Source: Candidatus Altimarinota bacterium
GTDB taxonomy: Bacteria; Patescibacteriota; Gracilibacteria; UBA1369
Assembly: GCA_041659405.1 (NCBI GenBank)
Contig: JBAZYK010000001.1
Span: 90,001 to 122,000, forward strand
Direction of reading: 5' to 3'
DNA: 32,000 nucleotides
Shown piece by piece: positions 1,956-28,000 of this stretch. Below the pieces are notes generated by a model. That model did not search any database, was not told the origin of the DNA, and saw only the letters and a program-made list of their open reading frames with translations. Within the stretch, counting starts at the first letter, position 1. The number at the start of each line of letters is the position of its first letter. The position numbers and the translations under genes were made by a program.

Positions 1956-1981
1956 AATTATAAAAATCTAAACTAACCAAT

Positions 1982-3625
1982 ATGAACATCAAAAAATACA
2001 TTAAAGATCATAAAACAATGACGATGACAGTTGTTGGAATTTTGGCTACTGTGGCCACTGTTTCGGCAGTGTATTTTTCCAATGGTGGATTGTTTTCGGG
2101 AAAATTGATTGGATTGATTAACCCGGTTTCTATACCAAAAATACTACCGCCCATTACCGACTTTGGCGTAACCAATACCTATTTATCCGCCACTACTCTG
2201 GATTTGGCAGCGGCAAATCATAGTATTACTTTCACTTATGGTTTCAAGGCTACTAAAGCTCCCGATCTTTTCATTTATGTTCTGCCGAATGGGAGTAACA
2301 ATGATGTCAGTAAAGCTTTAAAAAAATGGGACTGGGCGGCTCTCAATCCGGTTGACGGCTATAATTCTGTTTCCTGGGATGGAATCGATACAAATACAAA
2401 TAAACCTGCCGCGGTTGGAACTTATTATTTTTATACTTATTACCTTCCATTTATTTTTGATAAAAATCCAAATACGGCTCTAACGTTACAATCAACGCCT
2501 TTTCAGGTAATAAATACACCCAAACTTATAATTCCGCCGATTCCGGATGTTCCACCACAGCAACCTGTTAAAATTCCGTTTAACGATACAACCATAGCCA
2601 ATATCACATCCACACCGGCCCAAATCGTTTTGGGGAAGGATGCCTTACAAGTTACCGTGAATACATCATTTATGAATGCCAACTATGCTGTAAGGCTGCA
2701 ATTTGATGTTGATCCGAGTGGGTCTTCTATTCAAAATCCCAATCAAACTATTCAGTGGAATGGTACAAATACTTATGTTTTTAATTTTGATGCTAATGCC
2801 CTGTCCGCTATGAGTGCCGGTACCCATAATTATCAGGTAGATTTGTATGATAGTAACGTTGGGACAAATGATTGGCGGATGGGCACTTTTACAGCTGTTC
2901 TCCCACAGGTTCTGCAACCTGTGAAAATTCCGGTTCCGGTTGTTCCGGTTGTTCCGGTTGTTCCGGTTGTTCCGGTCGTTCCAGCGGTTCCGGTGGTTCC
3001 CGTCGTTCCCGTCGTTCCACCTGCTCCGGTGGTTCCTCCTGCGGCTCAAACCCCCGGTTGTGCCGGATACTATGACATTCTTTTGAATTCCACTACCTGC
3101 CAACAATATGGGCCAGCTTTGGAATATGCAAAGACAAAAAAAATTATGACCGGTAATCCGGATGGCACATTTGGGCCTTATGATTACCTGCAACGTGACC
3201 AGATTTTGAAAGTGCTTAAGCTGGGCGATGCAAACGTCCCTGCCAACTTATGCAATAATGTAACACCATTTCCGGATGTTCCAAGTGTGCTTTGGTCTTG
3301 TAATTTAATCGCTGAAGCAAAACAAAACTTGATTATAACCGGTTATTTGGCTACGGGACTTTATATGCCTTCTAATCCGGTTAATCGCGCAGAATTTGCA
3401 ACGATGATGACCAGAATGTTGAAATCTAAATTTAATATTTCTGTTCCTTTGGATTCAGCAAAAAATTATAAAGATGTTCCACCAACCGGTTGGTACACCA
3501 ATTACGCAGCTTTCTTTTTTATGAATGGTTTGTTTCCGGGTGACTACATGAATCCACCCAAGCCAATGACCAGAGTTGAAGTAGCTCAAATTGTTTATAT
3601 GCTGCACGTTCTTGGAAAATTTTAG
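1982..3625 (+). CDS. Surface protein paralog 1: N-terminal membrane anchor, FlgD-Ig-like WDG module, Pro-Val linker, C-terminal triple SLH-like module
   Basis: 547 aa ORF starting 26 nt after pilC. The N-terminus MNIKKYIKDHKTMTMTVVGILATVATVSAVYFSNGGLFSG is shared with the ORFs at 3718 and 8168. Other motifs: YNSVSWDGIDTNTNKPAAVGTYYFYTYY (FlgD-Ig-like signature) and a PVVPVVPVV linker. The C-terminal PGCAGYYD block carries SLH-type motifs (FPDVP...ITGY...P..PVNRAEFATMMTRML; YKDVP...PMTRVEVAQIVYML). Confidence 0.8.
   Translation: MNIKKYIKDHKTMTMTVVGILATVATVSAVYFSNGGLFSGKLIGLINPVSIPKILPPITDFGVTNTYLSATTLDLAAANHSITFTYGFKATKAPDLFIYVLPNGSNNDVSKALKKWDWAALNPVDGYNSVSWDGIDTNTNKPAAVGTYYFYTYYLPFIFDKNPNTALTLQSTPFQVINTPKLIIPPIPDVPPQQPVKIPFNDTTIANITSTPAQIVLGKDALQVTVNTSFMNANYAVRLQFDVDPSGSSIQNPNQTIQWNGTNTYVFNFDANALSAMSAGTHNYQVDLYDSNVGTNDWRMGTFTAVLPQVLQPVKIPVPVVPVVPVVPVVPVVPAVPVVPVVPVVPPAPVVPPAAQTPGCAGYYDILLNSTTCQQYGPALEYAKTKKIMTGNPDGTFGPYDYLQRDQILKVLKLGDANVPANLCNNVTPFPDVPSVLWSCNLIAEAKQNLIITGYLATGLYMPSNPVNRAEFATMMTRMLKSKFNISVPLDSAKNYKDVPPTGWYTNYAAFFFMNGLFPGDYMNPPKPMTRVEVAQIVYMLHVLGKF
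2929..3045 (+). repeat. 9-nt tandem repeat (GTTCCGGTT-type) encoding a (PVV)n linker inside paralog 1
   Basis: Direct reading: ccggttccggttgttccggttgttccggttgttccggttgttccggtcgttcc... It creates spurious ORFs on other frames and strands (2872..3075 +, 2666..3193 -). Confidence 0.9.
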
Positions 3626-6870: not shown

Positions 6871-6900
6871 GGATGAGTTTTAGGATAATGCGATGTTCAA

Positions 6901-6952
6901 TGTTGGCCGGCTGCTTGCGGTCAGGAAATCCGCACATCTTGTGACAGGTTTC
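6901..6952 (+). repeat. Direct repeat copy A flanking the AbrB/PIN pair
   Basis: tgttggccggctgcttgcggtcaggaaatccgcacatcttgtgacaggtttc versus 7931-7982 tgtcggccggttgcttgcggtccatgtattcgcacatctcgtgacaggtttc (9 mismatches in 52). Confidence 0.85.
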
Positions 6953-6980
6953 TATCAGCTAATGTTTAATCTGTTTCATG

Positions 6981-7005
6981 AAAAGTCCCCCGGGGGACTT
7001 TTTTT
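6981..7005 (+). terminator. Rho-independent terminator downstream of paralog 2
   Basis: aaaaGTCCCCCGGGGGACttttttt: a perfect 14-nt GC-rich palindrome (6985-6998) followed by a 7-T run, about 110 nt after the stop codon at 6870. Confidence 0.75.
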
Positions 7006-7119
7006 GAAATTGGCGATTCTTCTCTTCCTGAAGCCAGAATTTTCGGATTACCGGAATCTATTTGGGATTGTTTTTCCATCCTGGCAAGATTTTTTTGGTT
7101 TTCAGATTGTGAGCGGGCC
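6985..7119 (-). repeat. Inverted, diverged copy of cassette module Y
   Basis: The reverse complement of 6985-7119 aligns at roughly three quarters identity by eye with 13083-13241. Shared strings include ...gattccggtaatccgaaaattctggcttcaggaagagaagaatcgccaat..gtcccccgggggac. Confidence 0.75.
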
Positions 7120-7183
7120 TTGATTTTTCATTAGTAATTATTCATACTGAAAGTAGAAAAGTTGGAATTTTAAACTTTTGTTT

Positions 7184-7459
7184 ATGAAGAAAATTAGAAT
7201 CGTTCGCACTCAATCCAAAGGCATGGTAACTATTCCGGCGGAATTCCGCCAAAAATTGGGCATAAATGAAAACAGTCTACTGGAAGCGAAAATTGTAAAA
7301 AAAGGAATCTTGTTTTTAAAAATTAATTATAATTCATTGAAAATAGAAAAAAAACAGCCTGGCGAAATTTATTCAGAAAAACAGATTCAAGAGTGGCTTT
7401 TGCGTGACAAATTAGATGCTCGCACCCAAGCCAAAGTAAAAAAACTCTTAAATAAATAA
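7184..7459 (+). CDS. AbrB/SpoVT-type antitoxin (VapB-like)
   Basis: MVTIPAEFRQKLGINENSLLEAKIVKKGILFLK matches the SpoVT-AbrB swapped-hairpin motif. Small ORF ending 6 nt before a PIN gene. ATG at 7184 is preferred over the in-frame TTG at 7178. Confidence 0.7.
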   Translation: MKKIRIVRTQSKGMVTIPAEFRQKLGINENSLLEAKIVKKGILFLKINYNSLKIEKKQPGEIYSEKQIQEWLLRDKLDARTQAKVKKLLNK

Positions 7460-7465
7460 TCCGCC

Positions 7466-7900
7466 ATGATAAAGCTTTTCCTTGATGCAAATATTCTTTT
7501 TGCAGCCACTGCATCTATCAGTGGTGGTTCAAGAGCGCTTTTTGACTTAGCTCAAAAAAAATTGATATCCCTTGTTTCGAGTGAGTATGCTTTACATGAA
7601 GCAAAAATTAATATCGAAAAGAAGCTTGGGCACGAAAAACTCGTTGATTTCTATAAACTTGTGAGCTGGCTTACTGATGTTTATAAAAAGCCACTTACAA
7701 AAAGTGAACTGAGCGCTTTTCAAGAAATTATTGTTGCCAAAGATATTCCAATTTTAGCTGGAGCAAAAAAACTGGAGGTTGATTTCCTTATCACACTCGA
7801 TAAAAAAGACTTTCAAAATATGAAAATGAAAGCGACAAAATTTCCATTTCAAATTCTTTCTCCCGGCGATTTTTTGAGAGCATTTCCGTATAACACGTAG
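7466..7900 (+). CDS. PIN-domain toxin (VapC-like)
   Basis: 144 aa with N-terminal LFLDANILFAA (first PIN acidic residue) and the C-terminal ITLDKKDF motif. Tightly coupled to the upstream AbrB-type gene in the canonical antitoxin-first order. Confidence 0.7.
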   Translation: MIKLFLDANILFAATASISGGSRALFDLAQKKLISLVSSEYALHEAKINIEKKLGHEKLVDFYKLVSWLTDVYKKPLTKSELSAFQEIIVAKDIPILAGAKKLEVDFLITLDKKDFQNMKMKATKFPFQILSPGDFLRAFPYNT

Positions 7901-7930
7901 CGCCGGCTGATTATTCCGCCATTATGTCGA

Positions 7931-8006
7931 TGTCGGCCGGTTGCTTGCGGTCCATGTATTCGCACATCTCGTGACAGGTTTCGACCCTGGCAAGATTTTT
8001 TTTCGG
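7931..8006 (+). repeat. Direct repeat copy B: matches 6901-6952 and is then joined directly to sequence matching 7077-7103
   Basis: After gtgacaggtttc the copy continues gaccctggcaagattttttttcgg, which matches catcctggcaagatttttttggtttt at 7077-7103. Copy B therefore lacks the ~126 nt (6953-7078) that holds the terminator hairpin and most of the inverted Y module. Confidence 0.75.
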
Positions 8007-11697: not shown

Positions 11698-11719
11698 TTT
11701 ATTAGATGGATTTTTAAAA

Positions 11720-11750
11720 AGCTCTCCCTTAAACCCGGAGGGCTTTTTTT
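11720..11750 (+). terminator. Rho-independent terminator after the pilin gene; founder copy of the cassette junction
   Basis: AGCTCTCC-cttaaaccc-GGAGGGCT forms an 8-bp stem with one G-T pair, followed by TTTTTTT. Degenerate copies of the same sequence plus the TTGTTGTYT junction occur at about 12905-12940 and 14040-14062. Confidence 0.65.
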
Positions 11751-11891
11751 GTTGTTTAAAGAATTGCGCTGCGTTTTTTGTACCAATGTGTTCGGATTGA
11801 GTGGGGCGCGCGGCGCCTGCACTGCTTGCGCACTTTCGCGCTGACCTTTGGATTGCACCACTTTAGGTGAGTCAAAAAACTCCGTAGCATT

Positions 11892-12025
11892 TTAAAACAA
11901 TTTTGCCATAATTCAAAAGTGGCGTGATTTGCGTTTTGGTATTCCGATTTTACGGCTTACATATGCCACATTCTCAATTCGCACCCTTCCTCCCCGGGGA
12001 GGGATTACCGGCCAAGGCGCACTTT
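11892..12025 (+). repeat. Non-coding module X, copy 1 (~135 nt)
   Basis: ttaaaacaattttgccataattcaaaagtggcgtgatttgcgttttggtattccgattttacggcttacatatgccacattctcaattcgcacccttCCTCCCCGGGGAGGgattaccggccaaggcgcacttt. Only 2-3 differences from copy 2. Contains the 14-nt palindrome 11989-12002. Confidence 0.9.
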
Positions 12026-12090
12026 CTTGTGTCGGCGGTTTTGGCTCGATGGGGTTGGAGTGTGCCCGGGGCTGACGAATTTTTTCAAAT

Positions 12091-12249
12091 AAAGAATTGG
12101 ACAAGAGGACGCAGCCGTTTGGTTCGCAAAGCCAAAAAACAAAGAATTTGCCAATATGGGAAAATAGTCCACAATCGACTCCGGTAATCCGTAAATTTTG
12201 GCTTCAGGAAAAGAATAATCGCCAATTTTAAAAAAGTCCCCCGGGGGAC
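12091..12249 (+). repeat. Non-coding module Y, copy 1 (~159 nt), ending in the palindrome GTCCCCCGGGGGAC
   Basis: aaagaattgg...ttcgcaaagccaaaaaacaaagaatttgccaatatgggaaaatagtccacaatcgactccggtaatccgtaaattttggcttcaggaaaagaataatcgccaattttaaaaaaGTCCCCCGGGGGAC. Palindrome at 12236-12249, preceded by A6 (12230-12235), which is a hairpin plus T6 on the minus strand. Confidence 0.9.
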
Positions 12250-12253
12250 ATCC

Positions 12254-12350
12254 GATGATTTTATGCCGATTTCATAATCAGTTTAATTTTTTTTAATGTT
12301 GGAAGATTAAACTGGACAGCGAATCTGGAATTTTTGCTAAACGGATTTTT
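12254..12350 (+). promoter_or_regulatory. Module Z, copy 1: conserved upstream region / 5' leader of PIN cassette gene 1
   Basis: gatgattttatgccgatttcataatcagttt...ttttaatgttggaagattaaactggacagcgaatctggaatttttgctaaacggattttt directly precedes the ATG. It differs from copy 3 (14278-14374) at about six positions by eye. Contains a CATAAT -10-like hexamer and the inverted motif TTATG-N7-CATAA. The function (promoter, operator or leader) is inferred. Confidence 0.5.
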
Positions 12351-12752
12351 ATGGAAACTATCATGTTGGACAGCTCGGTTTGGATATCGTTATTGGGACA
12401 GGATGTGAACACGGAAAATGCTGAAAAAATTCATGATCACATTAAATCACTAAAATGTGAGATAATATTACCCATAATTATTTATGTAGAAGTTACAAAT
12501 AATATTATTAAACTGGATAAAACCGGCTTGATTAGGGGGAATTTCGAGGAAATTATTAGATTAAATAAAATAAAAATCCTTTTTCCGTCAGAGAAATTTT
12601 GGTACAATGCGATTGTTAATTGTACAAAAGGAATAAGGCTTAAAACGCTCGATTTGCTGATTCTTAACAGTGTCCTTGAATATAAAGTCGGAGAATTCTT
12701 CACTTTTGATAAAAAACTTAAAGCAGCATATGATTTAATCAAAAAATTATGA
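12351..12752 (+). CDS. PIN-domain protein (VapC-like), cassette 1
   Basis: 133 aa. The four PIN acidic positions are readable: MLDSSVWI (D), IIYVEVTNN (E), LKTLDLLIL (D), FFTFDKKL (D). Paralogous to the ORFs at 13454 and 14375. Confidence 0.8.
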   Translation: METIMLDSSVWISLLGQDVNTENAEKIHDHIKSLKCEIILPIIIYVEVTNNIIKLDKTGLIRGNFEEIIRLNKIKILFPSEKFWYNAIVNCTKGIRLKTLDLLILNSVLEYKVGEFFTFDKKLKAAYDLIKKL

Positions 12753-12874
12753 AAAAATCTGTAAAAAGAAAATCAAAAAAACTGGAGGAGCAAAAACTGC
12801 TCATAAAAATCCGTTTGGCACGTGTAAAAATACCGGGCAATGATTCCGTAAAGTACATACAAAGCAACAGGTAA
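12749..12874 (+). CDS. Small basic ORF (41 aa) overlapping the PIN stop codon (ATGA); candidate cognate partner
   Basis: MKKSVKRKSKKLEEQKLLIKIRLARVKIPGNDSVKYIQSNR. Below the ORF-track length cut-off and found by hand. The C-terminus DSVKYIQSNR is conserved in the equivalent ORFs at 13857 and 14775. Confidence 0.55.
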   Translation: MKKSVKRKSKKLEEQKLLIKIRLARVKIPGNDSVKYIQSNR

Positions 12875-12939
12875 GCTTGAGGATACGAGAGCGTGAGGTC
12901 AAAAGCCCTCCCCTTAAATCCGGCGTTTTTTTGTTGTCT

Positions 12940-13074
12940 TTAAAACAATTTTGCCATAATTCAAAAGTGGCGTGGTTTGCGTTTTGGTATTCCGATTTTA
13001 CGGCTTACATATGCCACATTCTCAATTCACACCCTTCCTCCCCGGGGAGGGATTACCGGCCAAGGCGCACTTTT
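12940..13074 (+). repeat. Non-coding module X, copy 2
   Basis: Near-identical to 11892-12025. Palindrome CCTCCCCGGGGAGG at 13037-13050. Absent from cassette 3. Confidence 0.9.
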
Positions 13075-13082
13075 GTTCGTAT

Positions 13083-13241
13083 AAAGAATTGCGCAGGGTA
13101 ACGCAGAAGTTTGGCTCGCAAAGCCAAAAAACAAAGAATTTGCCAATATGGGAAAATGATTCGCAACAGACTCCGGTAATCCGTAAATTTTGGCTTCAGG
13201 AAGAGAAGAATCGCCAATTTTAAAAAAGTCCCCCGGGGGAC
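13083..13241 (+). repeat. Non-coding module Y, copy 2
   Basis: Aligns end to end with 12091-12249 and 14063-14221. Palindrome at 13228-13241, preceded by A6 (13222-13227). Confidence 0.9.
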
Positions 13242-13336
13242 AATTTATGAAGCAGGAACCCGGCGGAGTGCCATACGGTGGCTTGCCGCTGCGGAGGTGA
13301 AATTTGGGGCGGTAATTATGCGCACTTTTTCAGGCC

Positions 13337-13412
13337 AATGATTTTATGCCGATTTCATAATCCGTTTAAAAAATTTTAATGTCGAAAGATTAAACTGGAC
13401 AGCGAAATCTAG
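13337..13412 (+). promoter_or_regulatory. Module Z, copy 2 (partial; its 3' part is replaced by unrelated sequence)
   Basis: aatgattttatgccgatttcataatccgtttaaaaaattttaatgtcgaaagattaaactggacagcgaaatct matches copies 1 and 3. The similarity is lost about 40 nt before the start codon. Confidence 0.45.
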
Positions 13413-13453
13413 CCGGCGGTTAGGTTTTTCGGTTATCATTGATTATGTTACTT

Positions 13454-13876
13454 ATGAAAACGGCACTTTTGGACAGCTCGGTTTGGATATCGTCTTTTAT
13501 CAAAGATGTTCATGAACAAAAAGTGAAATCAATTTTTGATAAGTTAATGATGGAAAATGCAAAAATAATATTACCGAAAATTGTTTATGCTGAGATTATG
13601 AATAACCTCATTCGCGTTGATCACACTTGCAAACTTTCCCGCAAAGCAAAGGAAAATCTATTAAATAATGTAAAAATAAGTGTTATCGACTTTAAAGCGG
13701 AATTCTGGCATAAGAAAATCGAGTACTATGCAAAATCGGTCCGGCTCAAAACTATGGATCTTTTGATTCTTGCATCTGCATTTGAATTTAATGTAAATGA
13801 GTTTTATACTTTTGATGTGAAATTGATGAATGCTTTTAATATTTTAAAATCGCGCCATGATAAAAAAAACAATTAA
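13454..13876 (+). CDS. PIN-domain protein (VapC-like), cassette 2
   Basis: MKTALLDSSVWISSF... aligns with METIMLDSSVWIS of the paralogs. Acidic positions D (LLDSS), E (IVYAEIMNN), D (LKTMDLLIL), D (FYTFDVKL). ATG 13454 chosen by alignment; in-frame TTG 13439 and ATG 13445 are possible. Confidence 0.8.
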   Translation: MKTALLDSSVWISSFIKDVHEQKVKSIFDKLMMENAKIILPKIVYAEIMNNLIRVDHTCKLSRKAKENLLNNVKISVIDFKAEFWHKKIEYYAKSVRLKTMDLLILASAFEFNVNEFYTFDVKLMNAFNILKSRHDKKNN

Positions 13877-13991
13877 ACGAAAGAAACAGGAAAAACGGGA
13901 TTTAAAATTTCTTATCAAGGAGCTTGATAAGGTGCAGATTAGCGTTGGAAAGAAGTTTGATTCCGTAAAGTTCATACACAGTAATAGATAA
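13857..13991 (+). CDS. Small basic ORF (44 aa) overlapping the 3' end of PIN gene 2 by 20 nt
   Basis: MIKKTIKRKKQEKRDLKFLIKELDKVQISVGKKFDSVKFIHSNR. Conserved C-terminus DSVKFIHSNR. Confidence 0.55.
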   Translation: MIKKTIKRKKQEKRDLKFLIKELDKVQISVGKKFDSVKFIHSNR

Positions 13992-14062
13992 GCCTAAGGA
14001 TGCGAGAGTGAGGTCTATTCAAAGAGACTTATCTTTACCCCTGGAGGGCTTTTTTGTTGTCT

Positions 14063-14221
14063 AAAGGATTGCGCAAGGGAACGTAGCAGTTTGGCTCGCA
14101 AAGCCGAAAAACAAAGAATTTGCCAATATGGGAAAATAGTCCACAATCGACTCCGGTAATCCGTAAATTTTGGCTTCAGGAAGAGAAGAATCGCCAATTT
14201 TAAAAAAGTCCCCCGGGGGAC
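14063..14221 (+). repeat. Non-coding module Y, copy 3
   Basis: Aligns with 12091-12249 and 13083-13241. Palindrome at 14208-14221, preceded by A6 (14202-14207). Here Y directly follows the terminator-like junction because module X is missing. Confidence 0.9.
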
Positions 14222-14277
14222 AATTTATGAAGCAGGAACCCGGCGGAGTGCCATACGGGGGCTTGCTCCTGCGAGCC

Positions 14278-14374
14278 GATGATTTTATGTCGATTTCATA
14301 ATCAGTTTAAAAATTTTTAATGTCGGAAGATTAAACTGGACAGTGAATCTGGAATTTTTGCTAAACGGATTTTT
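14278..14374 (+). promoter_or_regulatory. Module Z, copy 3: conserved upstream region / 5' leader of PIN cassette gene 3
   Basis: Near-identical to 12254-12350. The identity continues through the first ~45 nt of the CDS (atggaaactatcatgttggacagctcggtttggatatcgtt). Confidence 0.5.
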
Positions 14375-14782
14375 ATGGAAACTATCATGTTGGACAGCTC
14401 GGTTTGGATATCGTTTTTTGCTGAAGATTGCCATACTCCTGAGGCTAAAAGGATATTATCTAGAATAGAATCCGGTGAAGACATAATATTAATTCCATCA
14501 ATTATTTATGCCGAAATTATTAATAATCTCACGAAATTAGACAAAACCCTTAAATCAGTAAGTGTGGCAGAAATAGCTTTTAAAAATATAAAAATAAAAT
14601 TTATGAATCCGGACAGGAAATTTTGGTTTAAAAAACTCAAGCACTATTCCCTTAAAGTACAATTAAAAACAATGGACCTCGCCATTCTTGCAATTGCATT
14701 TGAATATAAAGTAAATCAGTTATATAGTTTTGATATAAAGCTGCAGAAGGCCTACGAATATCTAAGAAATCATTATGAATAA
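14375..14782 (+). CDS. PIN-domain protein (VapC-like), cassette 3
   Basis: 135 aa: METIMLDSSVWISFF..., IIYAEIINN, LKTMDLAIL, LYSFDIKL. The same D-E-D-D pattern as the paralogs. Confidence 0.8.
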   Translation: METIMLDSSVWISFFAEDCHTPEAKRILSRIESGEDIILIPSIIYAEIINNLTKLDKTLKSVSVAEIAFKNIKIKFMNPDRKFWFKKLKHYSLKVQLKTMDLAILAIAFEYKVNQLYSFDIKLQKAYEYLRNHYE

Positions 14783-14921
14783 GAAAAGAATTAAAATTGT
14801 AACAAAAAAAATAGAAATATTGCCTACTGATGACTTCAGGACGATTATAAAAAAAATGGATAAAATCCGGATAAAAATTAAAGGATTTAACTCCGTGAAG
14901 TTCATACACAGTAATAGGTAA
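14775..14921 (+). CDS. Small basic ORF (48 aa) overlapping the PIN gene 3 stop (ATGAATAA)
   Basis: MNKKRIKIVTKKIEILPTDDFRTIIKKMDKIRIKIKGFNSVKFIHSNR. Conserved C-terminus NSVKFIHSNR. Confidence 0.55.
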   Translation: MNKKRIKIVTKKIEILPTDDFRTIIKKMDKIRIKIKGFNSVKFIHSNR

Positions 14922-14983: not shown

Positions 14984-15652
14984 CTATTTGGCGGAAGACT
15001 TTTCCAGTCTGATAACGCGCTTGTTGAGTTGTTTGATTTTTATGTTCATTGGGGCAATCGTTTTGTAGATTGCGTTAAATTTTTCGTCCTGCTGATCAAA
15101 TCTTTCATTGATTTCGGAGAATTTCTGATTCATGTAGTTTTCCATGCTAATATTTGAATCTTTTAAATCCTCAACGTCTTCACGAAGCATGGCAACTTCC
15201 ATCTTTAGTATGCCAATTTCTTCCCTCATTTGTAACATTTCCGCTATTACTTGCCCCAGCCCTAAAGATAAAGCGCCAATATCACGAAGCATGGGTTTGA
15301 AATATTTTTCCTCAAGTTTTGCTTCAAAGCTTTTTTCAAATTCGGCGAAACGTGTGTCAAACTTTTCATCCATCTTTGCGTCCATCCTCTTTTCGAACTC
15401 CGCAAACCGCAGATCAAACTTTTCATCCATCTTTGCATCCATCTTCTTTTCGAACTCCGCAAACCGCAGATCAAACTTTTCATCCATCTTTGCGTCCATC
15501 TTCTTTTCGAACTCCGCAAACCGCAGGTCGAACTTTTCGTCCATCTTTGCGTCCATCTTCTTTTCAAATTCGGCAAATCTAACCTTGAGCTGCGCGTCGA
15601 GGACCGTTTCGATTAAATCTGCCAGTTGTTTTAGGGTTGCTTGGTCAAACAT
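14984..15652 (-). CDS. Coiled-coil protein with tandem 19-aa repeats; function unknown
   Basis: 222 aa ORF. RFAEFEKKMDAKMDEKFDL occurs four times plus a degenerate fifth copy. Then a charged heptad-like C-terminal half (EEIGILKMEVAMLREDVEDLKD..., IKIKQLNKRVIRLEKS). No TM segment or signal peptide seen. Confidence 0.7.
   Translation of the reverse strand: MFDQATLKQLADLIETVLDAQLKVRFAEFEKKMDAKMDEKFDLRFAEFEKKMDAKMDEKFDLRFAEFEKKMDAKMDEKFDLRFAEFEKRMDAKMDEKFDTRFAEFEKSFEAKLEEKYFKPMLRDIGALSLGLGQVIAEMLQMREEIGILKMEVAMLREDVEDLKDSNISMENYMNQKFSEINERFDQQDEKFNAIYKTIAPMNIKIKQLNKRVIRLEKSSAK
15353..15580 (-). repeat. 4 x 57-bp tandem repeat inside the coiled-coil gene
   Basis: Plus-strand unit aaacttttcatccatctttgcgtccatcttcttttcgaactccgcaaaccgcagatc. 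The first three units differ by 1-3 nt, the fourth is more diverged, and a degenerate fifth extends to about 15305. Confidence 0.9.
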
Positions 15653-16008: not shown

Positions 16009-19000
16009 ATGTCTGAATACAAAAACATACAACGAGTTATTGCCGGCCTGATCCTCTTCTTTTTGAACGTCCAAATTTTGGAAGTTCCGCTTAGTAAAGC
16101 GGCTCAGGACTGGGCAGCGCAGGGGCAAGCAAACGCCGCATCCGCCCAAGGCGCTTTATCCACCATTCCATCCGCAAAAGCCGTTGATCCAAATCAAAAT
16201 CCGGCAACTTTGCCTCATTTGGGAATCATCGCCATTTTGGTTGATGACGATTTGATGAACAATAAACAAAATTATGCCGGGCTAACGGCTCAATATGCAA
16301 AAGACCTGAATACTCAATTGCTTTCCGACCGTGTTCATCGTTATGCGATTGACGCGCAGAGCTCGCAGCCGAATACAAAATCGCTAATAATTAAAACTTC
16401 CCCAACCTCAAAGGTTGAAGATATTGCAAATAGCTTAGAAAAGTTGTACCTGGAAGGTGATGGCAGCAAGGGCAAAATCACCAACCTGGTTGGAGTTGTC
16501 ACAATTGGTGATGTGCCTTTGCCGGTTGTGAATAAAAATGGTTATCGTTTTGTAAGCATGATGCCTTATACCGATTTTGAGGATAAGGTTTATATTTTTG
16601 ACGCGGCCAGTAGCGACTATCTGCCAAATCCAAATTTAAAATTTGCCAAAGAAGAAGTCTGGCAGGGCGTGATCAAACCTCCACTAAAAGGCGAAGAAGG
16701 CAATAATCTTTTGGCTTCTTATTTCGACAAAAATCATCTGTATCACGCCGGAAATGCTGATTATTCCGTTTTTGATAAAAAGCTTTTATTTGCGGATCTG
16801 TACAACGAATTCAAATCCATGAATAAATTGCAGTTTAATAGTTATTTGCGCTACTTGGCGCACTGGGCCGATTTTGCTTATCTGCGTTTTAATAAACATT
16901 TAGCTGATCAGTTTTTGCAGGAAGTTACGGGCAAACTTAAGGAGCAGGGCGTACCAACAAGTACCAAGGATGCACAGGCGACAGCGGCAAAACAGCAGGC
17001 TGAATTAAATCAGGCCGGAATCCCAAGTGATGGGTTGTTAACTCCCCCATGTGATAAAGATTGCGAGGATGCCAAGAGTAAAAATCCAAAACTTCCCAAG
17101 GGCGACAATAATGTGCAAGCCGCGCCCTCTTCAACCAATAGCATGCCGGATATTCAAACCCGCACGCTCATTTTGAATTTTGTAAGTAAGTACGTTCAGC
17201 TTTTTGATAAATTTTTATCAACAATTAATGATTGGGCCAATTATACCGGCCGCTATAAGGCTGCTTATGAGGATGGCAATGGCAACACTTTAAGCGACAT
17301 TCACAGTATTCCGGCGCTTATAAGTATCAAGGATCAAAATACCAGTGAATATTTTAAACAGGTAAATGACAGCATTGAAAGTGCGATAGACCAACGTGCC
17401 CAGGAACTGCAAAACAGCATGTTAATGATCCAAAATGTTCACTTGAGTGGACAGGTTTTGCTTAGTGGACAACCAAAACCACAAGACCTTTTACCATGGG
17501 ATTTTGTGAATTTTTCGGAACATACTTTTGGCAATTTTAAGACTTTATCCGTAAATGGCGTTCCGGCTTTTGCAATGCAAAGCACGGCTGATTGCAGTAT
17601 TTATCGTGGATCAAACAACAATGGCACAAATTCGGTGATGACAAAATCAATCAAGATTTACAATCCAAAATCGGCAAGTCAAAGTGAAAATTTTGCCGAT
17701 GACATTGTTAATTTTGGTGGATGTTTGGGCAATAATTATAGCCACCCTGAACGCTGTTTCCCGGAAGCTGCGATTGTTCCGGTTTTTGACCTTGTGGGGT
17801 CCAAAGAAGTTGATCCTGCAACCGTTCCGGAAAGTGCCACAAATTACCGCGCCTGCTATGATTTTAAAGAGAAAAATAACTTTGCAAAATACATTGATCA
17901 GGTTGGAACATACCTGAAATTATTTAAATTATTGAAAGATGATCCGACCGCACAAGACTCGCTCGATCCAATATTAAAAACGTTTGGGTCTTCACATCTT
18001 CCCACGTCACAAATATTTATTTTTATATCGCCAAATGTGTTTATCACCCTGGCTGATGTTTTAAAGAAATTAAATATTCCCGCTGACGACTGGGGGCAGA
18101 TTGGTGAAGGCTTTTTGGCTAATCTAAAACAAAATCAGTATGTGCTAAATAACCCTTTTCCCGGTGTTGATTCTTTGACTATCAATTTAACCGCCGAGGC
18201 GGCTGTGGATAATTTGAAAAATGCTCCGATAATTTTGCCAACAATTTCTTATCATAAAGAGCCGACTGCGGATGTTCATAATAAGCCTTATACAAGTATT
18301 AATGAACAATTGCAGGCCGGTGGATTTACCGAAAGTTTACCAAGTGATAATCCCCGTTATGTGGCTTTCCAAGACAAACAAGGGTACTTTCAGAAAATTT
18401 ATTATCCGGATGCTTTTTCGGCAAAAAGTTATAACGATTATTTAAAATCATTACAGGACACCGAAAATAAAATTCTTGATCTGTATGGAAAATTTGACGT
18501 TAATCTGGCTCAAAAAAATGAACACTTCTTAACGAAATTACTTGGGGAACAGGATCAACAAAACGCTAAGGACAAGAGCATTTTTGACATTATTGGTGCC
18601 GCAAAATTGACGGATGCTTTTTCCTGGAAAGATTTGAATATCGATCAAAAGCATAATTATGTATTTACCGAATATTTGGGCGCAAAGGCCGATCCATATG
18701 TGGAAAAAATGAAGAGTGGTTATGAAGCCATGTATTTTGTGAGCCGTGGAAGTACGGATACTTTCCAAACGCAATTTAATGGCGATTATCCGGAAGATGA
18801 CAAGGATTTAAGTTTGGATAGTGCTTTGCATCCGGCCAATACTCCGGAAACTTCACCAAGTGATGCCGGTTATGCTAAAGCCAAAGAAGAAGGTGAAGGC
18901 ATCTTTATTTTTGAATGGTTTAAAGAAATTGTTAAGTGGGTCAAAGAAACCACCAATAAATTAAGCGCGACTATCCAACTTGAGCCGGTTTGCGGCGTGA

Positions 19001-22000
19001 ATGATGGAAAAGATCCTGAAACCGGTGGGGCCGGTGTTGGCCAAGGGCCTGTGAGTCAAACGGCAAATACAAGCAGGTTGATGATTTCCGCCAATAAAAA
19101 TGTTTTAAAAACAGGCTCCGGTGATACTTTGACTTTGACGGTTGTAGGCGTGGATAACAAAAATATTATCCAGGCTGCAGATAGTCAAACCATGGTTGAT
19201 TTGACCATTTCCAAAAGCAATGGACAGGATGTGGTGACAATCGCAAGTACTCATCCAATGCAATTAAGCGGCGGGCGCACGACTTTTATGCTTCAGGCTA
19301 CGGATGTTATTGGCAATGTAACGGTTAATGCGTTTGTTCAGGGCAAAAAAATCACTTCCAATACTGTGCCTATCAGTTCGACCAAAGGCAGCATTCGACT
19401 ACTTTCTTATGTGCGTACTACAGGTGTTGTTTACGCGGAAAAAGTTGCTTCCGGATTTATAATTAAAGATGCAAATGGAAATGTGATTGCAGAAGTGGAT
19501 GGCAAAACCGGCATGGTGACAATTAAAGATGATCGTTATCAGCTTTTGGCACAACCTTCGGAAGGGGCTAAACCGGTGCGTCTTTCGGTTCAACAAAAAA
19601 CCGGAGATCTAATTGTGGCGAGTGTCTTTTTTGCGGTTGATGGAAAACAGCCGATTTTAATTGATGGCCCGGATGTTGATTATCTGAAATCTTTTGCCGA
19701 TCTTGCTGGCGTGCATCTAAAAGATCTTTCCAATAAAGATGATTATTCCGCGCAAAAATCGAGTAATTCGTTTAACAAAAATGGAATTTATTTATACGAA
19801 AAAAATGGAAATAATCAAAATAAATTTGGCATTATAGATACTTTGGGGAATGTTTACCTTGCGGCCGGTTTTGGCTTTCAGATGAAGTCCCCTGCGCAAG
19901 GAGCTGATCCGGTTATTTTCCAGATTTTGGGCAAAGACAATAAAGCTTTATTTGAAATTTATTTGGGTATTCAGAATCCAACGGTGCAGATTCTGAAGCC
20001 CGAAGGTGATTATGCCGCTTACAATACTTTGAATAAGTCCCAGTCTGATTTTAATGAAATTCTACTTCAGGGCGCGTTTAAATTGCCGACAGGTAGCGAA
20101 AGTCAGAATTCGGACCTTTGGAATAAAGGCGCTACTGCAGGCGTTATTCCGGACAGTGATAACGATGGCTTAAACGATCTGCAGGAACTTTTAATCGGCA
20201 CTAATCCAAAGAATGCGGACACCAACGGTGATTTGATTAAAGATGGCGACGAAATCAATAAAAATCTTAGTCCGTTCATTAAAGATACGGCTCTGTTTAA
20301 AGATTTAACGCCGGCGCACGAAGCCTTTAACGATATTTTAAAACTTTATAAACGTGGAATTATTTCCGGTTATGCCGATGGAACCTTTAAGCCTGAAAGA
20401 TTATTAAGCCGTGAAGAATTTGTAAAATTGGATTTGGGAGCCATTTGTATTTATTGCACAAAACTAAGCGAAACTGTGAAGAAATCAATTGACGCGGTTT
20501 ATAATCAAAGTCCTTTCCCGGATAAAAACTTTACGCCAAACCTCTTATATTGTGTTAAAGAGGCCAAAAATCGTTCGATCGTTTCCGGATATAAAGGCGG
20601 GAATCAAGCCGGATATTATTTGCCGACCAATTCAATCAGCCGCGCGGAAGCGAGCAAAATTATTTTGGAAACCGCACGTCAGCAGGGAAACAGTAAAATC
20701 GCCGTTGATCCTTCAATTCCGGATGGCAAACCATGGTATTACAATTACGTTTTAACCACTCAAAAAGAACATTTCTATCCCAACGGTCGCTTTAAAGAGC
20801 TTGATACACTTGCTCCCGCTGAGTTTAAAACCTGGTTTGATGCTCAGTTACAACAGGCTGCAAGCGGACAAAGTAATGCCTTTGTGACTTGGATTTCCGG
20901 TGGAATTACGCGCGCGGAATTTTCGATTATGGTTTCCCGTTTGATCAATAAAACCGATTGTTTCGCGGACGACCAGGACCACGAGGGCTTATCCGATAAT
21001 CTGGAAAAATATGTGTATGGAAGTTCTCCAACCAATCCGGACACGGATAATGGCGGCGTTGATGATTTTACGGAAGTCGTAAATCAGATGAATCCGCTTG
21101 ATAAAAAAGATGATAATGATTCCGATGGCGATGGCATGCCAAACAGTTTTGAGGTTAAATATGGCTTGAATCCGTTTGATCCTACCGATACAAATAAGGA
21201 TAAAGACTTTGATGGTCTAACCAATTTGGAAGAATATCAATATGGAACCGATCCGTCCAATCCTGACACGGATGGTGGTGGCGTTAACGATGGCGATGAA
21301 GTTTTGCAGAAAATAAATCCGCTTGATGCCAAAGACGATTTTAAAAATGCCGGTGCCAAAAACGGTTCATACATCGTTGGCGACAATATTTTTGATAACT
21401 ATGTTTTTGACCAGCAAACACCTCCGGCCAATACTTCAAGTATAAATTTTGAAGATCAGGTGCCGGCAGATGGCAAGAGCAAGCTGTTTTTACGCGCAGA
21501 AGTTTTAAATGACAATGGCGACATAGATACCGCCCAAAATGGAACGGTTAAAATTTATCGCAAAACGGATTCCGGGAATTTTGCCAAGATTTCTCCCGAT
21601 CAGGTTAAATTGCAAAAGGGCGTTGCCGAAAGTGAAATTACCGCTTCTACCCACGCCGGTGAATATGTGGTTAACGCAGAATTGAATGGCAAGAAACTTC
21701 CGGTGGATGATAAATCAATTTTTGTTACACCGCTTGATCCGGCCAAAATCGAAATAAAAGTTGAATCTGCGTCTATTAAAAGTGGTGGGTTATCCAACAC
21801 AATTGCTTATGTTTATCTTGAGGATGTAAACGGCAATATTGTAAATAATGGCACTAATCAATTAACTTTTACTGTTGATGGACCCGGCCTGATTACTACC
21901 GGGGATGAAGATCCACAGCAAGATGGCATACAACTTTCAAGCGTCAGTGGTGAATTTGAGGTCATGATCGCTTCACAAAAAGACCCCGGACAAATTACAT

Positions 22001-25000
22001 TAAAGGCAACCTATCAGGCGCCGATTGATGAATTGGTAAGCCCTGAATTGGCCGCGGGTACCCAGGCGGTTACTCATATTTACTCGCGTGATGATTTGCA
22101 TTTGACGCTTATTCCGGCAAATGGAAGTATCCCATCCGATTACAGCACCGTTACAAGTTTGCAAGCTTCCGTGCTGGATAAAAATAATCAGGTTGTAAAA
22201 AACTTTAATGGAGTGGCACAGTTTGCTCTGCTTGACCCGCAACTTGGGAAACTGGTTTCAGGCTCTTCACAAGCGGTAAAAAACGGTCAGGCGCAAAATG
22301 CTTTTCAGGCAAGTAACAAAGCCGGTGATGCTAACATTTCTGTGACAATAAATGGATTTGATCCTGCAAACGCGATTGTAAAAACTGCTCCAAAAGAGGC
22401 CAAGAAAATTGTTTTAGAGGCGGCAAGCGATACAATCGAAAGCAATCCTTCATCAATAATGGAGGTTATTGGCAAACTTTATGACACCGACAATAATTTG
22501 GTGACTAATAACTCGACTACCCAGGTGACTATTCGCCTTACGGACGCAACCAAGCCTTATGGATTATTCGACAACCAGGCTGTACAAGCCAAAAACGGTA
22601 TCGTGAAATTCGCTCTTCGCGGGACGGGGAAAACCGGCCCAATTAACATTATTGCTTCCGCGAAAGGACTTTTAGATGGTGGTTTGCAACTTCAGAGCGT
22701 AAATAATTTCAAGGCGGATGATTTAAAAAATATTAATCCACAGGTTTTATTTGCCGCGGTTTTGGGTTCGGCTTTTGGTGATACATTTAAGGATAACTAT
22801 CTTGGTGGATGGTTCCTGTTTTCGGGAAAAACCCAAAGTGTACTTTCGTTGATGAGTGATCCAAAACCACATTTGGGACTTGTTCAAGTGGATTATAGCG
22901 GACGAATTAAAGCTTTGAGCAGTGATAGGCTTGAGTCTAAAATCATTCCCGGGAATGCGGTTAATCAGCCTACCCGTGTTATTTACACAGACACATTGAC
23001 CAGCCAAAACATCGCGGAAGTTTTTGCGATTGCCAAACCACAAACTGCGGCAAAGGTTTTGGCTGCGCAAGCGCCCGTTGCAAATCTGGCTGAAGGTATT
23101 TATCTGCAGAATCTTTCAGATACTCAGGATTATAGTGTTGCTCAGGCCGGTGACAGCGTAAGCCTGGTTAATAAAGGTAATGAAGCTGTGAAGATTTTCA
23201 ACAATGGCGCGGTGAAAATTTTTGATAACAACTTTGCCCTTAAATATGACCCTGCGGCCAATGATGCCTATTTTATTTTACAAATTTATGATGGTGGCGT
23301 CGCGGCGGCCCAAATTATTTATGCCTATGGCTTTAGCGGCGATGTTCAAAAATTACCGTTTGAATTTGCGTATTCCAATCAAGCAAATTATCAACCGGGT
23401 GTTTATGTACACATGCTGGATTCCGGTAAACAGTTTGAATTACTTCCATCTTTTTCTGGTAACTCAACCGCTTTGCCACAGGGCGCGCTAATCACGGATA
23501 CAAGCGAAGAAATGGCTAACACTCAGGCTCCCGGACTAAGTTATTCTTCAATTGAAACGGCAGCGGATAATCCCGGTGTTGGCTTTCAGGGCGATAATAA
23601 ATTTATGCTGCTTTTCTCCGCTGGTAATTCCGTGGGCGAAGCAAACGTGCCATACGCTTCAGAAATTGGCGTGGTGCTTGGTGATCCTACAGTCCGCCTA
23701 AATAATAAAATCAATGTTTCCAAAACCGGATTCACTCAAGATATTGGTCAGGAAATTTATTTTGGGAATGCCGTAATTCAGGAAATGCAGCCAATAGATT
23801 ATAACTCCGATGGCAATAAAGATTTGGTTGTGGCTTATCAGGATGGAAAAATGCGCTTGCTGCAAAATACCAATTCTTATCCGCGCTTTACGGATAAAGG
23901 CGTGCTGCTAAATTTCCCAAATGGAATAATCAGTTTTACGGTTGGAGATTTTAATAAAGATAATCAACCGGACATTGTGGTTGCTTCACAAGATAGCTGT
24001 AGAAAGGGCGAAATCTGCATTGATGAATATGTGAATAATAATGGTAATTTTGTTCGCAACCATTTAAAGTTGCAGGGTTTCACCGATAAAAATCGCATTA
24101 ACATGATTCGCTCCGGCGACATGAATAGTGATGGTTATGCAGACCTGGTTACCTCCGATGATGCAGGGGTAATCCGCGTTTTCTATAATCGTGGTGGCAG
24201 TTTTGACAAAGGCCAATTCATTGGATCACTGGGCGTTCATATCGCTCAAAACGATAATTTAAAAACCGAAGTTTTGGTTGCTTACGACGGCATGCCGAAA
24301 GTTGATCCTAAAGATTCAAACAGTGAACTTAATTTCAGAGAATTGCCGGTGCAATTGCCTAGGAGTGGCTTAAGCGCTGCAGATCAGCAGGCTTATGATG
24401 AAGCTCTTAATTCCGGATCGGATGCTGCAACTATCACAAGTTCTCCGTTAACGGATCAAACTCAGACTCAATTTCTTTTTGCCGATGTTGATCCGGCACT
24501 TTTTGCGTCCGAAAAACGTGCCAAGGATTTAACGCCTCCACTTGATACTTTGGCTCGTGGCGATGAAGTGGCTTACACAATAACTCTAAAAAATAGCGGT
24601 AATAATGATTTGCAAAATGTAATGGTGAGTGACGTTGTGCCAACAAGCATGGAAATTGAAAAAGATACAATTACCTGTAACGACTGCGGGAAAGAAACCA
24701 TGCGAATTGGTGAAACCGGAGAAAGTTTACGTCCGTATATTTTCAGCGGATTCAGTATTCCTAAAAAAGGAGAGCGCACTATTACCTATAAATCCAAAGT
24801 TAAAACTACGCCAAGAGTAAAAATTTATCTTGGTCAGAATTTGGATGCTGCCTATCCACAGGATAATTTTATGGATATTGGCGCCGCTCCGGATGGAAAT
24901 AACACCGGAAGAATGACTTATTTCTATTCGATTTCACAAAATCAGGTTAGTCAAGAAATGAATTATGGAACTTATGTTTCTCCTCCGCCGGATCCAAAAC

Positions 25001-28000
25001 TGGACGCACCTCCTCCTCCGGCAGATCCTTTAGGCATTGGGTCGCCTACTCCAAGCATGTTTGAGCTAAAAGATGATGACGGTATTCCGATTGTTTTAAA
25101 GGATTATCAGGACAAGCAAAATGGCGCGCCAAATGTAGATCAGACAATTTCCGATGAAGATTCGGACGGTTTGTCCAACTCCTGGGATGATTTTAATCAG
25201 GGGCTAAATGATCTTGATGCGGGCATTAGCAATGCCGCAGATGGCATTCAGGGCGCGATTGCCATGTTTACCTGTGGTGGTGGTTGTATTCCAATGCCTG
25301 TGAATTTTGCTTTTTTGGCTACCGGAAGTATTAACGTAATGGGTCTTCCGCTTGGCTTTGATCCCGGCTTGCCGGTTTTTGGCTGGGGCGCCCCATACCC
25401 GCCATTTCTTTGGCCGGGTAGCCCTTATCAGACAACACTTGGTGGAAGAATTTATCTTTCCCCAACTGCAACAATGAGCCTTGGAGTCGGTGTTTGTATT
25501 GGGCCATATCCGGTGGGCCTGTGTTGGGCCATTTCAGTCCCTCCGGTACTTTTGGGAATGGCAGGAATGTGTGAAGCGATTTCCGGCGGAATTGGAAAAG
25601 CTTTTGCCGGGGTCAATAACGCAATCCAATCGGTGAATAATTTGACCATAAGTTCAGATGGCACGCCACCGGACGCGGATAGCTCCGGCAGGTCCGAAAC
25701 AGGCGGGGTTAAGGGCAGCGCGACTTTGGGGAATTATCAATACAAAGCCAGTGTTGGAACCAATTTCCGTATACCCGGATTCCCTGCATTTATTACCAAA
25801 TGGATCAGCGATCAAACTTCTGAAATCATTAATAAATTGACCGATTTACCGGACTTTTATTTCTTATATCCGGACCCAACTTCCATCATTGGAATGGTTG
25901 TTCCAACCGATGAAGGTCAACAAAGTGGCAATTCCAAACGCACAAAATCTTTTACTTTCCCATCTTTCTCGGCTGATCCGTTTAAAGATAAAAGCGGTTT
26001 GGTGAAAGTGGCAAACACTTTTAATCCAAATAAAATTCTGGCTTTCATGAACAGTTTGCCGCTGATTCAGATTGAAGCTAAAGAAGTTACAATTAAGATT
26101 CCGGCCCTTTCAGATAAGGAAATCGAGAAATTCAAAGCTGACGCGCAACAATGGGTTGAAGATGAACGCAATGAAGTTAACAGAGTTTTAGCCTTGTGGG
26201 GATGCGGTAAAAAGCACCTTGATGCAAGCTGGAATCTGGTTACCGAAGACGGTGATTATGTGTCACCTTACCAAACCATGTGTGACAAATTGCTCTTAAA
26301 TATGACAGATTTGAAGGGAGCAATCGAAAAAAATATTGCCGTAATTGAGGCATATAAGGAATTGCCACGTCAAATTTTGGCCTGGAGAAATATTTACAAG
26401 AAATACCTTACTCAAATTATTTGTTATATTGACGCGATAATTCAATTCACCGGCGGTTATATTAAAAAACAACAGAGTCGCATAATGCTCTGGATTAAAA
26501 TGATCAAGGAAGTTAAAGAGCTGATTGAAACATGGAAAGCCATTCTTGATTTAATTATTAATTATCAGGCTACGTGTGACCGCTGCAGTAACGCGCGCTT
26601 TACGCTGGTGGAACTTATTTTGCGTCTGTTTGCCATAATTCCGGCGCCACCCGTGATCCCTTTTCCAAAGTGGCCGGATATTTATCTGGATTTGTCGCAG
26701 GTTAAAACCGGCTTAAAGATTTTATGGCCCGATGTGAAATTTATTCCCGAACGGTTGATCCTGCCAAAAATTCCTAGGTTAATTTTGCCGGATTTACCGA
26801 CATTGACGCTTAATTTGCCGGAGATTCCGGTTATCCCGGGTCCACCAAAAATCAATCTTGATTTGCCGGATTTACCACCGTTGCCACTTCCTTCTTTGCC
26901 GGATATTCCACCTCCACCAAAGGTGCCCGGTATACCGGCACAGGTTAAAATCGTGATCAATATCATTAAAACCATTCTTAGGATATGGTGCATGATTAAA
27001 AAAGGACTCCTGCCGGTACCTGAATTGATGCTTAAGGGGCATATCGAACAAATGACAGAGCGTTCGCTTTCTCCGCTGCTGCCAATTGATTTGGGAATCA
27101 AACTGCAGTTCCCGCCAATTAAATACGAATCACTGGATCGTATTGAAATTATTGGTAAAACAAATTTCCAACTTGAGTTTGGATTCATTTATGACTTTGT
27201 GAATAACCTTGCCGAAAAATGGAATTCGCTTGCGACCGACCTGGTTAATCTGCTTAATAAAAAAGTCCAGGATGCCGCCAAGGCTGCCCAATCCGCCGCT
27301 GATGCCGCCAACAAAGCTGCTAAAGAAGCCGTGCCGGGTGGAAATATTGATGTAGGCCCGGGTGGCGTAAACAAGAGCAGCAGCTTGATGCAGTTAATCG
27401 GTTCCATAGAACATAATTATGTCGCGGATAGCGGCACAATGAGTGATATTGCCGAAATTAAGGCGATGGCGCAGGAGCTTGGCGATACAGGCACTTCTGC
27501 CGATGTTAATGCCCTTTCTGTTCCGGTTGAAAATATGACAAATGCAGATTTGGATAGCATTTTGAAACAGCTTGAGCAAAATGATCCATATCTTGGATCG
27601 GCGCTTAAAGAATTAAAGATCGCCTCAAAAGATTTGGAAAAAACCGCTAAAGATGCCGCTGAAAATAATAAGGAAATCGAAAAAGATATTCATCTAACAG
27701 CAACCGAAACTTATTTGTCTAAAGATGATCCGCTTTTAAACCGCTCACTTTCCGACGTGAAATCGGGTATTGCGCTACAAGATCTGCCAACTCTTGATGT
27801 CCAAAATAAAATGGTGGCAATGCGTGATGCATTTATTAGTTATTCCGATGATCAAACATCTGCCAACGATCAAATTAACCAAATGCAGGATCTGGAAAGC
27901 ATTGGCCGATTCTTGGCTCAAGCTAAGCCACTTCAAGACTACCTCAAACAGGATGTAAATGGTGAAAACCGCGGGGTGGCTGCAATTGGCAGTGACAGCG

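Follow-up and report, generated by a model that had tools for sequence, protein, structure and literature searches.

Nucleases of the PIN/VapC type form the largest toxin family of prokaryotes, and antitoxin searches normally look upstream of the toxin gene for a DNA-binding protein. Among the known systems closest to the locus studied here are the VapBC modules. In complexes from C. crescentus, R. felis and S. flexneri a C-terminal arginine of VapB enters the active site of VapC (PMC5389673). Toxin-first type II modules are also known, among them HigBA, HicAB and MqsRA; the PIN/PIN3-HicB pairs of Synechocystis are tabulated in toxin-antitoxin (T-AT) order (PMC4963859), and for Klebsiella there is experimental confirmation of antitoxins encoded downstream (PMC7192599). 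Some antitoxins, such as PaaA2 and epsilon, have no DNA-binding domain (PMC5086665). Here we analyse a stretch of 32,000 nucleotides (the window), part of a 235-kb contig (JBAZYK010000001.1) from a metagenome-assembled genome (MAG) labelled Candidatus Gracilibacteria. Between 11.7 and 15.0 kb it carries three tandem units of ~1 kb, here called cassettes, each made up of a long non-coding spacer, a gene for a VapC-like PIN protein and a small open reading frame (ORF) for a strongly basic peptide, the partner.

How does this locus compare? It resembles VapBC in its toxin, a protein of ~135 aa with a predicted VapC fold and four conserved acidic residues, in the two overlapping genes per operon, in its multi-copy, patchy distribution, and in a partner with a conserved C-terminal arginine, the residue with which VapB plugs the VapC active site (PMC5389673). 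It differs in that the partner lies downstream of the toxin in 14 of 15 pairs, whereas VapB is usually upstream, and in the partner itself, which has just 41–63 residues, is strongly basic, lacks an AbrB, RHH, Phd or HTH domain and matches no VapB or other family. The toxin-first modules share the order of the genes, but HigA, HicB and MqsA are larger, carry HTH or RHH domains and are unrelated in sequence to the partner, which has no such domain. PaaA2 (paaR2-paaA2-parE2) and epsilon (omega-epsilon-zeta) are small antitoxins whose one task is to neutralise the toxin, without binding DNA (PMC5086665), a likeness to the role proposed here for the partner. Those systems, however, have a separate repressor gene (PaaR2, omega) and other toxin families, and no third conserved gene was found beside the PIN/small-ORF pair in the loci examined.

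We read the cassettes as a type II module in which the toxin comes first, translation of the two genes is coupled and the antitoxin has no DNA-binding domain, and we put the probability of this reading at roughly 60%. A preliminary description of the same DNA had called the partner possibly undescribed. That part holds for the protein, which has no match in Pfam, NCBIfam, PHROGs, PADLOC or PDB and which, judged from its sequence, belongs to no described family; the gene order by itself is not new, given the toxin-first pairs with PIN toxins (PMC4963859) and the downstream antitoxins of Klebsiella (PMC7192599). What is new is the partner family, conserved, strongly basic, domain-less and unclassified, which is tied to one VapC subfamily and occurs mostly in Patescibacteria-type genomes. 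A VapC subfamily of the ultra-small bacteria of the Candidate Phyla Radiation (CPR)/Patescibacteria type is paired with an easily missed "hypothetical" partner, and PIN genes classed as "orphans" in metagenome-assembled genomes may have a partner after all. If the partner is indeed the antitoxin, it would represent a new, minimal antitoxin family, two-gene VapC systems would be able to separate neutralisation fully from autoregulation of the operon, and a peptide of ~20–30 residues may inhibit a PIN nuclease.

A small coding frame behind each PIN gene

The genes of the three cassettes are as follows.

12351..12752, + strand: PIN gene of cassette 1, VapC-like, 133 aa, TGA stop; PF01850 E 1.9e-10
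12749..12874, + strand: small basic partner gene 1 (w1), 41 aa, pI 10.9, net charge +10.5
13454..13876, + strand: PIN gene of cassette 2, 140 aa from the ATG at 13454; PF01850 E 1.7e-12
13857..13991, + strand: small basic partner gene 2 (w2), 44 aa, pI 10.5
14375..14782, + strand: PIN gene of cassette 3, 135 aa, named VapC family toxin by NCBI; PF01850 E 4.6e-12
14775..14921, + strand: small basic partner gene 3 (w3), 48 aa, pI 10.9

For the cassette 2 PIN the ORF caller places the first start at TTG 13439; alignment of homologues favours the MKTALLDSS start. The three small ORFs had been translated by hand in the preliminary description, and both their positions and their products are reproduced here: MKKSVKRKSKKLEEQKLLIKIRLARVKIPGNDSVKYIQSNR for w1, MIKKTIKRKKQEKRDLKFLIKELDKVQISVGKKFDSVKFIHSNR for w2 and MNKKRIKIVTKKIEILPTDDFRTIIKKMDKIRIKIKGFNSVKFIHSNR for w3, all ending in (D/N)SVK(F/Y)I(H/Q)SNR. 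The overlaps with the PIN genes are likewise borne out by the coordinates. They amount to 4 nt in cassette 1 (ATGA; partner start at 12749, PIN stop at 12750–12752), 20 nt in cassette 2 (13857–13876) and 8 nt in cassette 3 (ATGAATAA, 14775–14782). The small ORFs had been described as lying below the cut-off of the ORF track; the ORFs are as described, yet they are not new to public databases, since the JGI/ENA gene calls of the source MAG already list all three as "hypothetical protein". NCBI carries one of them, the product of partner gene 1 (MFA5828962.1, hypothetical protein; E 3e-16 with the hidden Markov model (HMM) of the small family).

Is the small frame a gene? The window copies are insufficient to decide, because all three sit in one recently homogenised array. 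Relatives were therefore sought by protein searches, by an HMM search of 1.84 billion representatives and by scans of GTDB genomes and JGI metagenomes. None of the 19 homologous copies has an interrupted frame; each starts with ATG and ends just past a conserved ...(D/N)(S/V/A)VK(F/Y/W)(I/V/L)xxNR motif. The chance of an open frame, calculated from local base composition, is 0.045 for w1, 0.0125 for w2 and 0.0076 for w3. Outside the window, nucleotide similarity between loci ends exactly at the stop codon of the small ORF.

The pattern of substitution is that of a protein. Five synonymous changes among eight variable sites had been counted in the conserved tail of the window copies, and a check of the codons returns the same count. 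Among the homologues, third positions of the tail drift freely (GTA/GTG/GTT, AAG/AAA, TTC/TTT, ATA/ATC/ATT, AGG/AGA/CGG), and all indels are in frame. By Nei-Gojobori counts, pS is 0.55–0.90 and pN 0.16–0.48, so that synonymous sites are saturated and the small ORF resembles the adjoining PIN gene. The closest pair, w3 and its orthologue in L003, is separated by one in-frame 3-nt indel and has a dN/dS of 0.12 in the small ORF and 0.16 in the PIN gene. A frame broken in relatives while the nucleotide motif persists would have pointed away from a protein; the opposite is seen, with the frame persisting while synonymous sites drift. We conclude that the small ORF is a true gene and that purifying selection acts on its protein; such selection had been proposed from the three window copies and is now confirmed with outside homologues.

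The products of the upstream genes match Pfam PF01850 in all three cassettes (E 2e-10 to 2e-12), and eight aligned PIN sequences share the acidic residues D7, E47, D101 and D120 without exception. The AlphaFold2 (AF2) model of the cassette 3 PIN has a pLDDT of 91, and its best PDB folds by Foldseek are VapC20, VapC26, VapC11 and VapC30 of M. tuberculosis and VapC2 of R. felis, with TM 0.65–0.75. The NCBIfam VapC equivalog gives 19–26 bits, under its cut-off of 80, and a profile search of PDB sequences gave no detectable match for the PIN. By its model, the PIN folds like VapC, and the alignment shows its catalytic residues to be intact.

Linkage of the partner to one PIN subfamily

HMMs were built for the small protein and for the PIN subfamily, whose hallmark is LDSSVWIS...IIYAEIxNN...KTMDLxIL...FD, and were run over all fetched loci. 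The searches for relatives had yielded 12 further pairs outside the window and hence 15 PIN/small-ORF pairs in total, together with one orphan partner copy and extra tandem copies. The outside pairs are found on Patescibacteria/Gracilibacteria-type contigs and in one Chitinophagales-labelled MAG, in unrelated neighbourhoods: beside TsaD/HisRS, DnaJ, glycosyltransferases or an AbiE pair, among others. The partner is present beside every subfamily PIN with readable flanks, downstream in 14 cases and upstream in one, and no intact subfamily PIN without a partner was seen among these loci.

PIN and partner are co-oriented and adjacent in all 15 pairs, with an overlap of 4–29 nt in 12 and a gap of 5–12 nt in three. 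The tie between the start of the small ORF and the stop of the PIN gene, which it overlaps or abuts, had been noted in the cassettes and is reported for 15/15 pairs. The order is flipped in L012, the Chitinophagales-labelled MAG, where the partner lies upstream and a 4-nt GTGA overlap is retained. No upstream ORF is common to the cassettes and the outside loci, in agreement with the earlier statement that the cassettes have no upstream antitoxin ORF. The distance matrices of PIN and partner correlate (Mantel r 0.83, p <= 1e-4). The partner is strictly linked to the PIN subfamily and co-diverges with the PIN.

Decay of the pair was seen in one direction. In L005 an intact partner stands behind a PIN remnant of 48 residues, and in the second unit of L002 the PIN N-terminus, including the first catalytic Asp, is swapped for foreign sequence beside an intact partner. 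PIN loss with the partner kept was thus found twice, the reverse in no case. The direction fits an antidote, but weakly, because the PIN gene (~400 nt) is a larger mutational target than the partner gene (~140 nt).

Copy number is dynamic, since L001 and L002 are syntenic and carry one and two units, respectively. The hybrid PIN region of L002 (897–1425) has ~40 N-terminal residues replaced, and a foreign 75-residue ORF (897–1124) lies upstream and overlaps it; the hairpin GTACGAAAAAATCGTAC stands on both sides (896–915, 1604–1625), and the region looks like a recombination scar. In L014, a Patescibacteria MAG, a PIN gene is followed by tandem partner paralogues at 1728–1943, 1944–2138 and 2139–2360, then by a second PIN gene (2495–2905) and a fourth partner (2918–3109; whole region 1728–3109). 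Each of these partners has a doubled C-terminal motif (DPNxDLLKWMRxN ... GKKVDVLKxLKKxRG).

The family as a whole is rare in current databases: the protein and HMM searches found only 13 clusters among 5.8 billion, of 41–72 aa, none with a known domain. IMG/VR yielded no relative, and a viral origin was rejected. In the pairs the partners have 41–63 residues with 13–19 Lys and Arg, a pI of 10.2–11.9 and a net charge of +7.5 to +12.5. The most conserved stretch is a short C-terminal segment and not the basic tract; its consensus is (K)IRvKI-G-x-D-S-V-K-F-I-x-x-N-R, with a near-invariant Arg at or beside the C-terminus (NR*, ERA*, GRG*, IRG*). In the AF2 model residues 1–20 have no secondary structure, and helices are predicted at 21–34 and 40–47.

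Several homologies were tried for the partner and rejected. Profile matches in PDB were limited to the ribosomal proteins mL54 (E 0.0095) and L31 (E 0.28) and were judged to be chance hits of a Lys-rich query. An RHH fold was suggested by a beta-strand-like K-x-I-K-I N-terminus and by an "LP...KKM" likeness to the RHH antitoxin of L006; an RHH mini-alignment scored E 0.32 in hhalign, the same value as the reversed-sequence control, and there was no PF01402-type Pfam match at E <= 1–5. The predicted coil-helix-helix topology is compatible with RHH, not diagnostic of it. Pfam and NCBIfam returned no AbrB, RHH, Phd/YefM or HTH DNA-binding family, and Foldseek with the partner model gave 0 matches. 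Could the partner be a "headless" VapB, that is, the C-terminal toxin-binding tail of a canonical antitoxin? Its tail aligns with the C-terminus of the L006 RHH antitoxin (...GESVVEWLRKDR) at an hhalign E of 0.026 and Prob 1.9%, and hhalign against the window AbrB antitoxin gave nothing; this is a lead below significance, and we do not claim it. A PIN-peptide fusion by programmed frameshifting was rejected because the frame offsets differ (+1 in two cassettes, -1 in one) and because three loci have a gap of 5–12 nt in place of an overlap.

Proposed mechanism and alternatives

In the mechanism that we infer, a lineage-typical promoter would drive the gene for the VapC-type PIN ribonuclease, which would be toxic by itself. 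The partner start overlaps or adjoins the stop codon of the PIN gene; ribosomes that complete the PIN probably go on to translate the partner, which would therefore be made whenever the PIN is made. By analogy with VapB, the conserved C-terminal segment would dock on the PIN domain, and the terminal Arg would fill the acidic catalytic pocket (D7, E47, D101, D120). Bound and neutralised in this way, the nuclease would be held inactive for as long as the small, unstructured and presumably labile partner persists. No other antitoxin candidate was found, either as a conserved upstream ORF or as an Rfam match.

Several points weigh against the type II reading. The extreme basicity of the partner suits a nucleic-acid binder equally well, and most PINs of the subfamily are basic too; an acidic character is more usual among classical type II antitoxins. 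Searches detected nothing similar in sequence among solved VapB proteins or other antitoxins, and the AF2 model of the partner is of low confidence (pLDDT 63). The decay asymmetry comprises just two cases and would also be expected from target size alone. Finally, the upstream regions showed no module-specific operator, palindrome or autoregulation site.

These points feed a different account, in which the partner does not inhibit the PIN but is a nucleic-acid-binding accessory of it, for instance an adaptor to RNA or the ribosome that delivers the PIN to its substrate, or else regulates the operon by binding DNA/RNA non-specifically. Its charge, its Lys-rich N-terminus with predicted disorder and the ribosomal character of its only weak profile matches all fit such a role; with most PINs basic, charge complementarity is no argument for inhibition, and strict co-occurrence and co-divergence would be expected of any obligate partner. 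We nevertheless consider an accessory rather unlikely. It would leave a VapC-fold nuclease with intact catalytic residues without a visible inhibitor, the multi-copy, patchy distribution is a hallmark of toxin-antitoxin pairs, and the extra partner-only copies of L014 and the partner-only survivors of L005 and of the second L002 unit fit an antidote better. Conservation, moreover, peaks in the short C-terminal segment and not in the basic tract, and the ribosomal matches have no Pfam backing. A bolder version, that the partner is a new kind of PIN regulator, a basic domain-less peptide that acts on nucleic acid and not a toxin-binding antitoxin, we hold for quite improbable. The peptide might coat or shield the RNA target of the PIN, an antidote as in type IV systems, or it might tether the PIN to the ribosome or to RNA as a specificity subunit; in either form the C-terminal (D/N)SVK(F/Y)I..NR segment would be the handle for the PIN.

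Two further accounts deny that the sense frame is the gene. Every cassette, and several other loci, also has an antisense ORF of similar extent. The ORF list places those of the cassettes at:

12739-12867, - strand: antisense ORF of cassette 1
13844-13975, - strand: antisense ORF of cassette 2
14762-14905, - strand: antisense ORF of cassette 3

Their product would be a hydrophobic peptide of ~45 residues (MNFTESLPGIF..., Phe/Leu/Ile-rich), similar to a type I toxin, and the sense frame could then be a mirror artefact, because both frames share third codon positions; for the same reason dN/dS alone cannot separate them. The antisense frame is open in 11/19 copies, but 8/19 have one or two internal stops (among them L001, L004, L005, L006, L012, L013 and L014d), and a Met start is absent in L004, L009, L016 and L018. 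It reaches 46% residue identity where the sense frame reaches 61%, and it has radical replacements (mean BLOSUM62 -1.27; sense frame +0.05). An interrupted, less conserved hydrophobic frame sets the locus apart from type I systems and, with the sense start tied to the PIN stop in all copies, makes an antisense gene very improbable. We give hardly any credence to the proposal that the tail is conserved as DNA or RNA (an attC-like recombination site, a terminator or a small-RNA target) and that its open frames are incidental. It draws on the ~20 nt beyond the stop over which conservation extends in cassettes 1 and 2 (family D9) and on the highly conserved non-coding repeats amid which the cassettes sit. 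Against it, similarity in the outside loci halts at the stop codon, synonymous tail sites vary and indels keep the frame; Rfam gave no match at gathering scores and, in E-value mode, only an unrelated weak match outside the cassettes. No inverted repeat is reported in the cassettes except arms that include the CCCCCGGGGG spacer hairpin. Integron gene cassettes in particular were rejected: no attC-like inverted repeat was reported at the cassette ends, the scan of window ORFs turned up no integrase, the neighbouring genes code for pilus and SLH surface proteins, and the tail is coding.

Promoter-like blocks, spacers and surroundings

A promoter-like, AT-rich block precedes each PIN gene of the array:

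12251..12323, + strand: block of PIN1, ATTTTA..ATTTCATAAT..GTTTAA..TTTTAATG, repeat family D5
13334..13406, + strand: block of PIN2, like that of PIN1
14275..14347, + strand: block of PIN3, like that of PIN1

Its core of ~45 nt (ATTTTA..ATTTCATAAT..GTTTAgAAAAtTTTAATG) is kept upstream of the PIN genes in L001, L002, L003, L009, L013 and L017. L009 has the block twice (1657–1699 and 3512–3556; 84% identical to window 14279–14323), before the PIN/small-ORF pair and before an AbiEii-containing operon. Because it also precedes the AbiE operon, we regard the block as a lineage-typical promoter and not as an operator of the partner; it is perhaps typical of defence or toxin-antitoxin operons.

The array (11700–14420) is a mosaic. 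The spacers (12079–12350, 13071–13406, 14051–14374) are 88–100% identical between cassettes, and the coding parts (12395–12874, 13500–13991, 14420–14921) are 40–60% identical with saturated synonymous sites; cassettes 1 and 3 remain 100% identical as far as nucleotide ~44 of the PIN ORF. This pattern suggests gene conversion of the spacers, a recent spread of a spacer element, or cassette exchange via conserved flanks. A spacer repeat of ~130–170 nt (12090–12250, 13071–13255, 14051–14235) ends with the hairpin GTCCCCCGGGGGAC and a T-run; read along the minus strand of the cassettes, these look like a terminator. An inverted copy with 83% identity stands at 6971–7103 (+); neither significant RNA structure (z 0.1 to 1.0) nor an Rfam match was found for the repeat. 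A second element, of 135 nt, lies in the spacers of cassettes 1 and 2 (11891–12025 and 12939–13073, 99% identical) and is absent from cassette 3. Its plus strand contains CCTCCCCGGGGAGG and folds better than shuffled sequences (minimum free energy -39.8 kcal/mol, z -2.7). A related motif, CCCCGGGG.AG.GA.TACC.GCCAA.GCG.AC, occurs downstream of the modules in L001 (~1665–1700) and L002 (~1622–1660); the element is a candidate small RNA or miniature mobile element.

The window also holds a module of the usual antitoxin-first layout, which had been pointed out before and is real:

7178-7459, 7466-7900: canonical AbrB(MazE)-PIN pair (7178–7900 overall)

The inverted copy of the spacer repeat lies directly upstream of it. 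The pair is bracketed by 56-nt direct repeats of 82% identity (6897–6952, 7927–7982), each followed by the short motif CCTGGCAAGATTTTTTT (7080–7096, 7984–8000), as if it had been inserted or duplicated as a unit.

The label "Gracilibacteria" raised the possibility of genetic code 25 (UGA = Gly). This was rejected; the standard code applies, as 9705 codons, 5316 of them in a single ORF, contain no in-frame TGA. Only PIN1, 1 of 16 ORFs, ends in TGA, and code 25 would add just three codons to it.

The array is flanked by type IV pilus and surface-protein genes and by the gene for a giant protein of 5316 residues. Upstream are genes for a T2SSE ATPase, T2SSF, three SLH proteins and a pilin. Just after the array, at 14984–15652 on the minus strand, lies a gene for a coiled-coil-like protein of 222 residues with four tandem repeats of 57 nt (19 residues; MDAKMDEKFDLRFAEFEKK); it has no significant Pfam match, and its L003 orthologue has fewer repeats. 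The second half of the window is filled by the single ORF at 16009–31959 (+), whose 5316-residue product is probably a giant surface protein.

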